A DNA stretch of 64,000 bases from the NCBI GenBank assembly GCA_965228895.1, contig OZ245842.1, positions 5,184,001 to 5,248,000 on the forward strand, read 5' to 3'. The notes beneath the pieces are model-generated. The model saw only the letters and a program-made list of their open reading frames with translations, did no database searches and had not been told where the DNA came from. How positions within the stretch are numbered: position 1 is the stretch's first letter; each line of letters begins with the position of its first letter. Origin of the DNA: Alphaproteobacteria bacterium (GTDB lineage: Bacteria; Pseudomonadota; Alphaproteobacteria; SP197). The translations under genes were made by a program, and so were the position numbers. This document shows, piece after piece, positions 32,989-61,645 of the stretch.

Positions 32989-34386
32989 TTAGAGGTTGGG
33001 ATGGCGATGGTAGAGCGGATGGGCGGTTTCGAAGGCCTGCGCGGCTCTTAGCACCAGGGCGTCCTCGTAGCGCCGCCCGACGATCTGCAGGCCGATGGGC
33101 AGGCCGCCGGCGCTGAAGCCGCAGGGGACGGTGATCGCCGGCTGTTTGGTCGCGTTGAACGGGCCGACGAGGACCTCGTAGTTGTCGGTCTCCATGCCCC
33201 AATCCGGCGGATGGTCATGGCCGTTGGGGAAGGGCAGGACGGTGCAGGCGGGCGTCAGCAGGAGATCGAAACGGCGATGGAAGTCGATCATGACGCGCGC
33301 CATCTCGCCGCGCCGGCGGTCGGCGTCCAGCAGATCGCCGGCGGGAAGGTCGCGCCCCATCTCTGCTGACTCGAGCATCTCATGGCCCAGTCTTGCCCGC
33401 TGTTCTGCCGGCATGACATCGACGGACGCGGCGGCCAGACCGTGCCACAAAACGTCGAACCATGGTGTCGGGTCCTCAAACGGCGGATCCGCTTCCTCGA
33501 CGGTCGCGCCGAGGCTCTTGAAGATATCGATCGCCTGACGGCAGGCGGCGGCGATCTCCGGGTCGACCGGCGCAAAGCCCAGATTGCCGCTATAAGCGAT
33601 CTGAAGCCCGGCGACGCCGTCGTCGAGACCGGCGACATAGTCGCAGCCGTCATCGGGCAGCGCGTGCCAATCGGTGGGGTCATAACGCGCGATCAGGTTC
33701 ATGGTCATGGCGGTGTCGCGCACGGTGTGCGAGACCGGGCCGCTCGCCGAGAGCTGGCCGAAGTCGTTGCCGTGATCCTGGGGCACGCGGCCGAAGGTCG
33801 CTTTGATGCCGACCAGACTGCAGAAAGCCGCCGGCGTTCGGATCGAACCGCCGCCGTCGCTGCCGATCGAGATCGGGCCGCAGCCGGCGGCGACCGCCGC
33901 GACGCTGCCGCCGGACGATCCACCGGGCGTGCGCCCGGTATCCCAGGGATTGACGGTGAGCCCGGTCAGCGGGCTGTTGGTGATGCCGGAATTGCCGAAC
34001 TCCGGCGTTGTCGTTTTGCCGATCAGCACCACGCCGCCTTCCCGGAGTCTGGCGACCAGCGGGGCGTCGCGGTCCCATGGACCGGCGGGATCGACCGCCA
34101 AGCTGCCGCACAGCGTCGGCCAGCCCCTGGTCTCGATCAGATCCTTGATGGAGATCGGCACGCCGTCGAGCGGCGACAGCGGCGATCCGGCCGCCCATCG
34201 TTCCTCGGACGCCTTGGCGGCGGCGAGCGCGGCGTCGTCATCGCGCAGACAGAACGCGTTGAGGATCGGGTCGACCTGATCGATCCGGTCCAGTACCGCT
34301 TGTGTCACCTCAACCGGCGACAGTGTTTGCGCGCCATAACCTGCAGCCAGATCAGATGCGCTTTGCCAGATGATGTCGTCGCTCAT
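32989..34386 (-). CDS. Amidase (amidase signature family)
   Basis: GVPISIKD, GKTTTPEFG, PGGSSGGS, GSDGGGSIRTPA. Confidence 0.93.
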   Translation of the reverse strand: MSDDIIWQSASDLAAGYGAQTLSPVEVTQAVLDRIDQVDPILNAFCLRDDDAALAAAKASEERWAAGSPLSPLDGVPISIKDLIETRGWPTLCGSLAVDPAGPWDRDAPLVARLREGGVVLIGKTTTPEFGNSGITNSPLTGLTVNPWDTGRTPGGSSGGSVAAVAAGCGPISIGSDGGGSIRTPAAFCSLVGIKATFGRVPQDHGNDFGQLSASGPVSHTVRDTAMTMNLIARYDPTDWHALPDDGCDYVAGLDDGVAGLQIAYSGNLGFAPVDPEIAAACRQAIDIFKSLGATVEEADPPFEDPTPWFDVLWHGLAAASVDVMPAEQRARLGHEMLESAEMGRDLPAGDLLDADRRRGEMARVMIDFHRRFDLLLTPACTVLPFPNGHDHPPDWGMETDNYEVLVGPFNATKQPAITVPCGFSAGGLPIGLQIVGRRYEDALVLRAAQAFETAHPLYHRHPNL

Positions 34387-60199: not shown

Positions 60200-60274
<75 letters not shown>

Positions 60275-60340
60275 TTTTTTCGTGATAAATCAATGAGATA
60301 TAGACACGCCTCGGTTGGCGCAAAGTCCCTGATCGCCTAG

Positions 60341-60360
60341 TGGGTAACGTTCTGGGTAAC
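60341..60360. repeat. TGGGTAAC direct repeat, candidate integrase arm-type sites
   Basis: TGGGTAAC at 60341-60348 and 60353-60360, about 70 bp from the tRNA 3' end. Confidence 0.5.
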
Positions 60361-60439
60361 ATGAGAAGAAATCGTGGTAAGCGACTGGTCTGGCGCGTCG
60401 AGTGTCAGCTCGCTGGCGAGAATGGAGTAGCCCGTCAGA

Positions 60440-60505
60440 GATTCACGAGTCGAATCATCGACTTACGTAAGTTGTTGATTCCGCTCAGAGAATCCGTATG
60501 ATTCT
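60440..60505 (+). promoter_or_regulatory. TA promoter region with six GANTC sites, an IHF site and a -10 palindrome
   Basis: GANTC at 60440, 60447, 60452, 60477, 60490, 60500; TTGATT-N16-TATGAT; AATCAACAACTTA on the minus strand at 60468-60480; AGAATC-N5-GATTCT. Confidence 0.6.
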
Positions 60506-60518
60506 AGGCGCAATGAGC

Positions 60519-61067
60519 ATGGCTAATCAAAATCGCCCGAGGTATATGCCCAACACCAGCAAGGCGTTGGAAGTCATCCTGTGGTTGGGCACACGCCAAC
60601 GCGGTATCGATGTATATCACCTCGTCAAAGCAGCCTTCTTTGCCGATAAGTCCCACATCACTGAGTATGGTCGGCCCATCATTGGGGACGACTACGAGGC
60701 CAAGACGTATGGGCCGCTGCCTCGCGTGATCTATGGGTTGCTGAAACACGATCTGCTGGAGATCCAGGCGGCGGGCACGAACGGCAAGCTTCCGTTCGAA
60801 ATCAAGGACGCGTACTGCGTTTACCCTGACCGTCCACCTAACCTCAGAAGGCTCTCGCAGAGCGATGTCGAGGCGCTGGAGTACGGCTACGACATCGTGA
60901 AGGACAAGTCTTTCGACGAACTGGTTGAGCTAACCCACGACGACCCTGCCTATATCAATGCCGATGGCGGAATGATGGATTATCGAGACTTCATCCCGTC
61001 AGACGACCCCGAACGCGATGAAAAAGCTCAGGACATTCTAGAGGTCGCTAGATACGCAGTAGTATAA
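60519..61067 (+). CDS. Panacea (DUF4065, SocA/GepA) domain antitoxin
   Basis: K..FFADK.H..EYGRPI.GD.Y.A..YGP.P..IY..LK and L.ELTH..P motifs. In-frame starts at 60498, 60513 and 60519; 60498 lies inside the -10. Confidence 0.85.
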   Translation: MANQNRPRYMPNTSKALEVILWLGTRQRGIDVYHLVKAAFFADKSHITEYGRPIIGDDYEAKTYGPLPRVIYGLLKHDLLEIQAAGTNGKLPFEIKDAYCVYPDRPPNLRRLSQSDVEALEYGYDIVKDKSFDELVELTHDDPAYINADGGMMDYRDFIPSDDPERDEKAQDILEVARYAVV

Positions 61068-61071
61068 GGCC

Positions 61072-61422
61072 ATGTTTGCGCCTGGCGATGTGGTGTTGGT
61101 TTGGGACGCGTTCGTCCGACCACCCAAAGAGAAGCTGCATATTTGCATCTCTAACGAGAAGCAGCTGTTTCTGCGGATCAATAGCGCGCCTAGATACAAG
61201 CCTCATTTGAAGCTCGACGGATCATCAGACTTTCTCCGCCACGATAGCTACGTCGAGCTTACTCAGCTCGTCCGTCTTCGGCGATATGACATTGACAACG
61301 CTCGAACCTTAGGGCGCGTTTCGAAGCGCCAGGCCGCCGAGATTGTTGCGGCCGCGCAGTCGGCCAAGACACTGACAGCAGACCATGCGGACTTCATCGA
61401 AGAGTGCCTGCGGAGCGTGTAG
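61072..61422 (+). CDS. Putative toxin, divergent MazF/PemK-like
   Basis: PGDVVLV..P.K.K..ICIS..RINS..LRHDSYVELTQL..LGRV..EI pattern parallels MazF/NdoA; 4 bp after the Panacea gene. Confidence 0.6.
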   Translation: MFAPGDVVLVWDAFVRPPKEKLHICISNEKQLFLRINSAPRYKPHLKLDGSSDFLRHDSYVELTQLVRLRRYDIDNARTLGRVSKRQAAEIVAAAQSAKTLTADHADFIEECLRSV

Positions 61423-61645
61423 ATCCGCCAGCTACTTCACCGTTGGAAAATCCGTCTCGTTTTCTAATGGACAGCCGCCGATGATCAGCGCAGCATCATA
61501 AAGCGGAGCCCCACAGGTGCGCGAACACCCGTGAGGCCCCTGACCACAACGACCTACTGCACAGGTGCGTCATGGCTGCAAAACCACATACCACAATAGA
61601 GAACTGTTGCACGCCTCCAGTGGGTCTCAACCACGGGAGAAAACA

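Follow-up and report, generated by a model that had tools for sequence, protein, structure and literature searches.

Six GANTC sites packed into 65 bp were found in the promoter region of a toxin-antitoxin (TA) operon carried by an integrated element of an alphaproteobacterial genome, and the same word proved to be enriched upstream of homologous operons in preference to every other pattern of its form. With about even confidence, the array may be regarded as a conserved, GANTC-specific promoter feature of this TA family that is most likely read by the GANTC methylation/GcrA system; we infer methylation and GcrA as the readers, and likewise the direction of the effect. The interpretation given in the earlier note is supported in part. 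The window, that is, the whole 64,000-nt stretch of DNA analysed, belongs to a host genome assembled as one contig of 5,528,408 bp with 62.4% GC.

The toxin-antitoxin operon and its integrated element

The first gene of the operon, panA, encodes a Panacea-domain antitoxin that matches PF13274 (Panacea, DUF4065) with an E-value of 1.2e-15 and 58.9 bits, against a cut-off of 25.7 (Table 1). A search at E<=1e-20 returned 154 PanA homologues, mostly of 180-185 aa, whose N-termini align with MANQNRPRY; because of these N-termini and lengths, ATG 60519 (or 60513) is the likely start codon instead of the start at 60498 that had been assumed earlier. No helix-turn-helix (HTH) domain was found in PanA by Pfam, and the Foldseek search with its structural model gave no match at E<=0.001, the best match of the model in the VIA-wide structure comparison being a DarTG chain (Z 8.2). 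The partner is predicted to be a toxin of the MazF/PemK fold, the top Foldseek matches of its model being all MazF, with TM 0.6-0.68. The 116-aa frame gave no Pfam, PHROG or PDB sequence-family match, and the MazF matches in the profile search were weak (E 0.5). Of the 86 loci searched, 55 have a homologue of the toxin gene directly after panA, and several of the others are cut off. The Pfam domain, the fold and the promoter scan described below agree with the identification of the 65 bp, in the earlier note, as the promoter region of a Panacea/MazF-like pair. Directly after the toxin gene there is a terminator-like hairpin (61505-61540); coinciding with it, at 61502-61577 of the minus strand, the SymR antitoxin RNA is weakly matched (29.3 bits versus a gathering score of 61, E 0.004).

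The operon lies next to a tRNA-Thr gene whose last 49 bp recur 15.56 kb downstream (genome 5259788-5259836, outside the window), and these repeats bound an integrated element of 15,562 bp and 59.5% GC, with the TA pair at its attL end. Genes of the element code for a P4-type tyrosine integrase that carries an Arm-DNA-bind_3 domain, an AlpA-type excisionase, an AAA_25 primase/helicase-like protein, a product with a weak Terminase_2 match, and several phage-like proteins of no assigned function. The term prophage, under which it had been introduced, holds as far as a phage-like integrated element is meant; since the element is too small and incomplete for a full prophage, it is better described as an integrative element that resembles a satellite or remnant, for which we take P4-like satellites with defence cargo near their ends as the comparison. 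The element also has a methylase of its own, a ParB-N and Dam (PF05869) protein with an NPPY motif (L147:12206-13231, minus strand, equivalent to window positions 72206-73231), which sits upstream of the weak small-terminase match in an arrangement resembling the 'ParB-Tls locus' of alphaproteobacterial phages. The P4-type integrase probably has its arm-type sites in the direct repeats TGGGTAAC(A), of which each arm beside the 49-bp core holds two. The GANTC cluster itself was rejected as a set of such sites, because TGGGTAAC is the repeat common to both arms and the other arm, at 75400-75787, is without GANTC. Elsewhere in the window, ARAGORN places a tRNA-Phe at 33079-33169 on the plus strand; at 91 nt, and with its anticodon at position 37, it is longer than is usual for this tRNA in bacteria.

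Table 1. Coordinates of the features; positions are those of the window unless the genome (contig C1) is named
Feature	Position	Strand	Remarks
tRNA-Thr (CGT), integration target	60200-60274	+	ARAGORN; Rfam tRNA, 79 bits
attL core, 49 bp	60226-60274	+	last 49 bp of tRNA-Thr; exact direct repeat
Arm-type repeats TGGGTAAC, probable	60341-60348, 60353-60360	+	two copies
Arm-type repeats TGGGTAAC, other arm, probable	75652-75671 (75652, 75664), window-equivalent		adjoin the integrase gene; outside the window
GATTC	60440		upstream trio; centre about -67 from the predicted transcription start
GAGTC	60447		upstream trio; centre about -60
GAATC	60452		upstream trio; centre about -55
GATTC	60477		overlaps the predicted -35; centre about -30
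GAATC	60490		in the -35/-10 spacer; centre about -17
GATTC	60500		overlaps the predicted -10; centre about -7
Imperfect palindrome GAATCATCGACTTAC/GTAAGTTGTTGATTC	60452-60481		30 bp, 26/30 self-complementary; GANTC caps both ends
Perfect core ACTTACGTAAGT of the 30-bp palindrome	60461-60472		12 bp
Perfect IHF-consensus match AATCAACAACTTA	60468-60480	-	overlaps the predicted -35
Predicted sigma-70 promoter TTGATT-16-TATGAT	60475-60502	+	promoter scan; -35 at 60475-60480, -10 at 60497-60502
Palindrome AGAATC-N5-GATTCT	60489-60505		spans spacer and -10; from sequence
panA, Panacea-domain antitoxin, 182 aa	60519-61067	+	PF13274; alternative starts 60513, 60498
Partner toxin, 116 aa, predicted MazF/PemK fold	61072-61422	+	AF2 pLDDT 95.9
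ParB-N + N6_N4 methylase fusions, 453-489 aa	genome C1: 326764-328164, 932173-933639, 4304160-4305518		outside the window
MT-A70-family adenine methylase, 218 aa	genome C1: 2921911-2922567 (L148:1462-2118)		DPPW motif; outside the window
MITE copies	genome C1: 1043946, 5086550, 5097206, 256146, 221036 and others		outside the window

The GANTC cluster and the promoter

Each of the six GANTC sites listed in the earlier note was recovered at exactly its position. The word is rare in this genome, with 97 occurrences in the window versus 304 expected from dinucleotide shuffles. As the genome carries 9511 GANTC (1.72 per kb), about 0.11 are expected per 65 bp, and the 0.25 per span given earlier was too high. 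In the genome-wide sliding count that had been proposed as a check, the cluster is the densest 65-bp window in 5.53 Mb and the only one with six sites, the next best, its own sub-windows aside, having four. None of 20,000 Markov-1 simulations of the 246-bp arm contained six GANTC, the mono-shuffles of 60420-60520 reached a maximum of four (2 of 20,000), and the density of GANTC in non-coding DNA gives about 0.003 such clusters expected per genome. Two-hairpin MITE copies of the host genome hold 4-6 GANTC each, with GAATC/GATTC at the hairpin bases, and a hairpin MITE is present in at least 5 of the 10 other clusters of at least five GANTC in 150 bp. The origin of the cluster as a copy of this GANTC-rich (CIR-like) MITE was rejected, the blastn search of 60275-60520 against the genome matching only itself. 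DNA homologues of 60275-61430 were sought in 33 family genomes, with no match beyond the genome itself and one of 28 bp.

The consensus scan found three promoter-like sites versus 0.7 expected, and the predicted transcription start of the sigma-70 promoter, at about 60509, leaves a leader of only 4-10 nt. The overlaps described earlier, of GATTC 60477 with the -35 and of GATTC 60500 with the -10, hold by the scan because TTGATT and TATGAT occupy 60475-60480 and 60497-60502, respectively, and the palindrome formed by the last two sites, AGAATC-N5-GATTCT, is likewise present. The perfect IHF consensus reported over the -35 corresponds to a single perfect match to WATCAANNNNTTR on the minus strand, one of 91 in the whole genome, and the same layout of IHF consensus and -35 occurs at -43/-42 in the homologous loci L026, L028 and L030. 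A promoter-like sequence of the minus strand, TTGATT-18-TAGAAT at 60501-60530, overlaps GATTC 60500 and is directed to attL; this is a consensus match only, which in the excised circle would read across attP to the integrase gene. Over the region, only the tRNA exceeded the threshold in the search for an RNA family (Rfam) or structured leader, and the DNA fold, at a z-score of -1.97, was equalled by 11 of 200 shuffles.

The fit of CGAGTCG (60446-60452) to the Caulobacter GcrA motif YGAKTCG, as proposed earlier, is correct and extends to the 60452 site on the other strand (TGATTCG), so that three of the six window sites agree with the GcrA box when 60500, which fits YGAKTCK, is included. The published GcrA boxes, as given in the available parts of PMC9976885 and PMC4647560, lie at -20+/-1 and -30+/-2 in the spacer and at +2..+30, and the two best boxes of the window, at about -55 and -60, fall outside these positions. 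GANTC sites are found near the start, itself predicted, at about -30, -17 and -7, which is the arrangement expected by position of a CcrM/GcrA promoter, where GANTC falls within about 40 bp of the start.

Conservation of GANTC upstream of homologous operons

In total, 88 loci encoding PanA relatives were gathered, and five of them were excluded beforehand: L015 (25% identity), L019 (contig shared with L100), and L056, L088 and L089 (without upstream DNA). At least 150 bp of upstream DNA were available for 75 of the remaining 83, with 32 of these at >=50% PanA identity, and L045, the upstream region of which is identical to that of L044, was dropped to give 31 de-duplicated loci. The clusters before homologous operons that the earlier note had suggested looking for were found in this set as an enrichment of 7.5-8.4-fold. 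Upstream of panA, 64 GANTC occur in 4805 bp (13.3 per kb), and the other 84,303 bp contain 150 (1.78 per kb), which makes the enrichment 7.5-fold, the next N-centred palindrome reaching 2.7-fold; Markov-1 simulation of the 31 upstream regions gave 21.7+/-4.7 GANTC, with a maximum of 39 in 2000 runs. In the -120..-1 interval before panA, GANTC is the first of 136 XYNZW patterns with 8.4-fold enrichment (the next, 3.7-fold), at least one site being present at 27 of the 31 loci and none at four. Generic gene upstream regions contain 0.17-0.47 GANTC in -120..-21 (n=30, 38, 47 and 1599) versus 1.77 in the PanA family. The sites are most frequent in the intervals -80..-61 and -40..-21 relative to the ATG, with 0.48 per locus per 20-bp bin compared with about 0.03 in coding DNA, and they adjoin, overlap or directly follow the -35 (TTGAWTC, GANTC-TTGAAC, GASTC-TTGCG); in three homologous loci GANTC lies between the -10 and the ATG. 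The six sites of the window are the highest number per promoter, the family maximum being otherwise five (L092).

The upstream regions cannot be aligned with one another, the 32 sequences falling into 29 clusters; each of the four bases occurs at the centre of homologue promoter sites, and no dyad symmetry was detected past the 5-bp core at promoter GANTC (0.26-0.33 per position versus 0.17-0.30 elsewhere); therefore, the 5-bp word is the conserved unit. Since it is the top pattern, 7.5-8.4-fold enriched in otherwise unalignable DNA, the GANTC word itself appears, on the sequence comparison, to be selected in PanA-family promoters. The enrichment stays with panA at the loci that have no tRNA in the fetched DNA (21 of the 22 scanned). 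The extended Caulobacter GcrA motif, to which the earlier note had drawn attention, is no commoner at family promoter GANTC than elsewhere: YGAKTCK was found at 18 of 58 promoter sites versus 47 of 158, and YGAKTCG at 11 of 58 versus 30 of 158. The 43 homologues of less than 50% identity, many of them AT-rich, gave 5.1 versus 3.1 GANTC per kb. All of the four named homologue sources are alphaproteobacterial, and the nearest of them, Rhizobium and Methylorubrum (L013, L014), whose hosts are presumably CcrM-positive, have 0 and 1 upstream GANTC. The plasmid homologue search, in which published regulon data were sought, gave no match at E<=1e-20.

Methylation machinery of the host

The earlier note had supposed that the host carries ccrM, and had itself treated the absence of the gene as decisive against its proposal; the host was found to be without a canonical CcrM. 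The only PF01555 matches of its genome are three ParB-fused methylases with 96-102 bits, compared with 209-238 bits for the CcrM-like genes (366-415 aa) of other families in the class, and the same three genes, with 22-26% identity, were the only tblastn matches of the 377-aa CcrM-like protein of a relative. The CcrM equivalog NF050803 reached 42.5 bits at best in the host, and 8 of 12 family relatives had no PF01555 match. The three ParB-fused methylases are considered accessory, because such ParB-N and N6_N4 methylase fusions are absent from the same-genus genomes G001 and G002. Phage records with a match to them number 1071; among the 25 matches listed, the identity is at most 49% and none has a stated specificity.

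As to the reader of the mark, the expectation that the host carries gcrA was borne out: PF07750 matches both halves of one 148-aa frame, which aligns with Caulobacter GcrA at E 1e-28 with the DNA-binding domain conserved, and GcrA was found in 11 of 12 family relatives. At the positions of the methyl-pocket residues R33/N34/I37/G38 of Caulobacter GcrA, as named in the portion of PMC5887438 at hand, the host protein has K/N/V/G, that is, identical residues or conservative changes. According to the accessible text of PMC4647560, GcrA binds unmethylated DNA too, the Kd for methylated probes being only 1.4- to 1.7-fold lower.

An MT-A70-family adenine methylase is encoded in the host (G000) and in all 12 family relatives, and in none of eight genomes of other families in the class; the distribution of canonical CcrM across the family and the other families is opposite to it. 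Because this distribution is that expected of a replacement writer, MT-A70 may have replaced CcrM, as far as gene content indicates. The family-wide MT-A70, the ParB-Dam-like methylase of the element and the three beta-class methylases fused to ParB are the candidate GANTC writers. Within 220 bp upstream, gcrA of the host has no GANTC and the MT-A70 gene has one.

The genome-wide depletion of GANTC was rejected as proof of methylation, being similar with and without PF01555: the observed-to-expected ratio (Markov-1) is 0.29-0.35 in the family genomes, including three without PF01555, and 0.44 and 0.22 in two CcrM-like-bearing relatives. The depletion is also recorded for the CcrM-less Magnetococcales in the part of Gonzalez 2014 that was available. 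The non-coding to coding ratio in the host is 1.95 for GANTC and 1.9 for CTNAG. In a comparison of G000 with a same-genus genome, 76 of 134 non-coding GANTC were conserved (0.57), compared with 0.60 for TGNCA and 0.58 for ATNAT, the count being inflated by MITE copies.

Alternative explanations

It is possible, although we consider it unlikely, that the GANTC sites are operator half-sites for PanA, a PanA-toxin complex or an AlpA-type regulator, in which case the TA operon would regulate itself and the match to the CcrM word would be coincidental. The sites do form palindromes (the 30-bp GAATC...GATTC, 26/30, and AGAATC-N5-GATTCT), the spacing of successive promoter GANTC, 11-14 bp in 8 of 31 cases and 30-35 bp in another 8 of 31, suggests helical phasing, orthologous repressors that are 50-70% identical can still share one specificity, and the N-terminal half of the PanA model is like the winged-helix domains of such regulators as PadR, MecI and MarR (Z 4.1-5.0). 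However, these Z-scores are in the range that the tool calls common, PanA has neither a Pfam HTH nor a significant Foldseek match, the symmetry at the promoter sites ends with the 5-bp core, and the number, position and central base of the sites vary freely across homologues; moreover, the word that is kept coincides exactly with the target of CcrM, and the four named sources of the family all belong to the Alphaproteobacteria.

That a strong AT-rich promoter gave rise to the cluster incidentally, as a chance extreme with no factor reading GANTC, we hold to be improbable. The region has 47-49% GC in a genome of 62%, AT-rich patterns are enriched 2-3.7-fold in PanA-family promoters, and the letters of TTGATTC/TTGAATC at the -35 and of the IHF-like ATCAA cores are compatible with GANTC; one GANTC does arise from TTGAWTC at the -35 in the window, L020, L030 and L050, and the ATCAA half of the IHF match is the hexamer TTGATT in reverse. 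On the other side stand the 8.4-fold enrichment of GANTC against <=3.7-fold for all remaining patterns of that form, the composition-keeping simulations, which reach neither six sites nor the family total, and the location of most family GANTC outside the -35 hexamer. Hardly credible, finally, is the possibility that the sites belong to the P' arm of attP and assist recombination, as accessory sites of the integrase arm, Xis/AlpA or IHF type, with no connection to the TA operon: the cluster is 166-230 bp from the 49-bp core, the element has genes for both an AlpA-type excisionase and an integrase that carries an arm-binding domain, and there is one perfect IHF consensus match, but the arm-type repeats are TGGGTAAC, two per arm, 75400-75787 lacks GANTC, and the enrichment follows panA at loci that do not adjoin a tRNA (21 of 22 scanned).

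Proposed mechanism and comparison with known systems

In the preferred reading, that of a GANTC-specific promoter feature read by methylation and GcrA, the 65 bp would be the control region of the two-gene panA and MazF-fold toxin operon, carried as cargo at the attL end, and selection would act on the six GANTC themselves as cis-elements. They are placed upstream of, on and between the -35 and -10 hexamers of the predicted sigma-70 promoter, which would give an almost leaderless transcript. The reader would most likely be the GANTC epigenetic system of the Alphaproteobacteria, in which N6-adenine methylation of the word is recognized by GcrA; this sigma-70 cofactor stimulates open-complex formation at promoters with a methylated GANTC at about -20 or -30, within the spacer, or shortly past the start. 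The transcription of the TA pair would, in this case, follow whether its own DNA carries the mark on both strands, is hemimethylated because it has just been replicated, or arrives unmethylated.

A further version, which we rate as improbable, takes the six-site array for a sensor of a foreign methylase, with methylation by an invading or induced phage switching PanA-MazF as an abortive-infection trigger. Its premise would be that GcrA was kept, CcrM was lost and MT-A70 does not write GANTC, so that GANTC marks would come only from mobile-element methylases, namely the resident ParB-fused enzymes or the CcrM-like ones found in many phages of Alphaproteobacteria. This version would, more widely, make the PanAT family the first of the toxin-antitoxin families in which GANTC methylation acts as the gate.

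The arrangement is like the sigma-70 promoters of the Caulobacter GcrA/CcrM system (PmipZ, PcsM and ctrA), for which the available parts of PMC4647560, PMC9976885 and PMC5887438 place GANTC in the spacer and near the start, and, as in Caulobacter, a GcrA with a conserved DNA-binding domain is present. However, it has six sites, compared with one in most GcrA-activated promoters covered by these parts, the operon is mobile TA cargo and no cell-cycle gene, the YGAKTCK preference is not enriched in the PanA family, and the host lacks a canonical CcrM. The PanAT systems (Kurata et al. 2022, PMC8832971), as far as the accessible text goes, share the position of the Panacea antitoxin next to its toxin, and PanA with MazF/PemK-like PanT toxins is a validated combination there; the PanA described here differs from that account in being without the N-terminal HTH. 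The alphaproteobacterial phages with GANTC and ParB-fused methylases, treated in the consulted part of PMC6536676, are matched by the ParB-fused adenine methylase of the element and the three more of the host; the enzyme of the element is, in distinction from the CcrM family, of the Dam/PF05869 type.

The literature search, in which the matches on TA, methylation and GcrA were judged on titles and abstract openings, gave no link of Panacea TA systems to GANTC/CcrM. In the Dam-dependent switches agn43/OxyR and pap/Lrp, several methylation targets are packed in a promoter or operator, where binding of a protein and methylation could be mutually exclusive, and the present cluster is alike in its packing; it differs from agn43 and pap, which rely on GATC and Dam in another phylum.

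Significance

The sensing of the trigger is a central open question for TA and abortive-infection systems. With a word of cell-cycle methylation kept in the promoters of a whole PanA-MazF family, TA modules would be linked to the state of DNA replication and methylation. In the host lineage, an alphaproteobacterial family with GcrA, without CcrM and with MT-A70 in every genome examined, either the writer may have been replaced or the reader may work without its mark.
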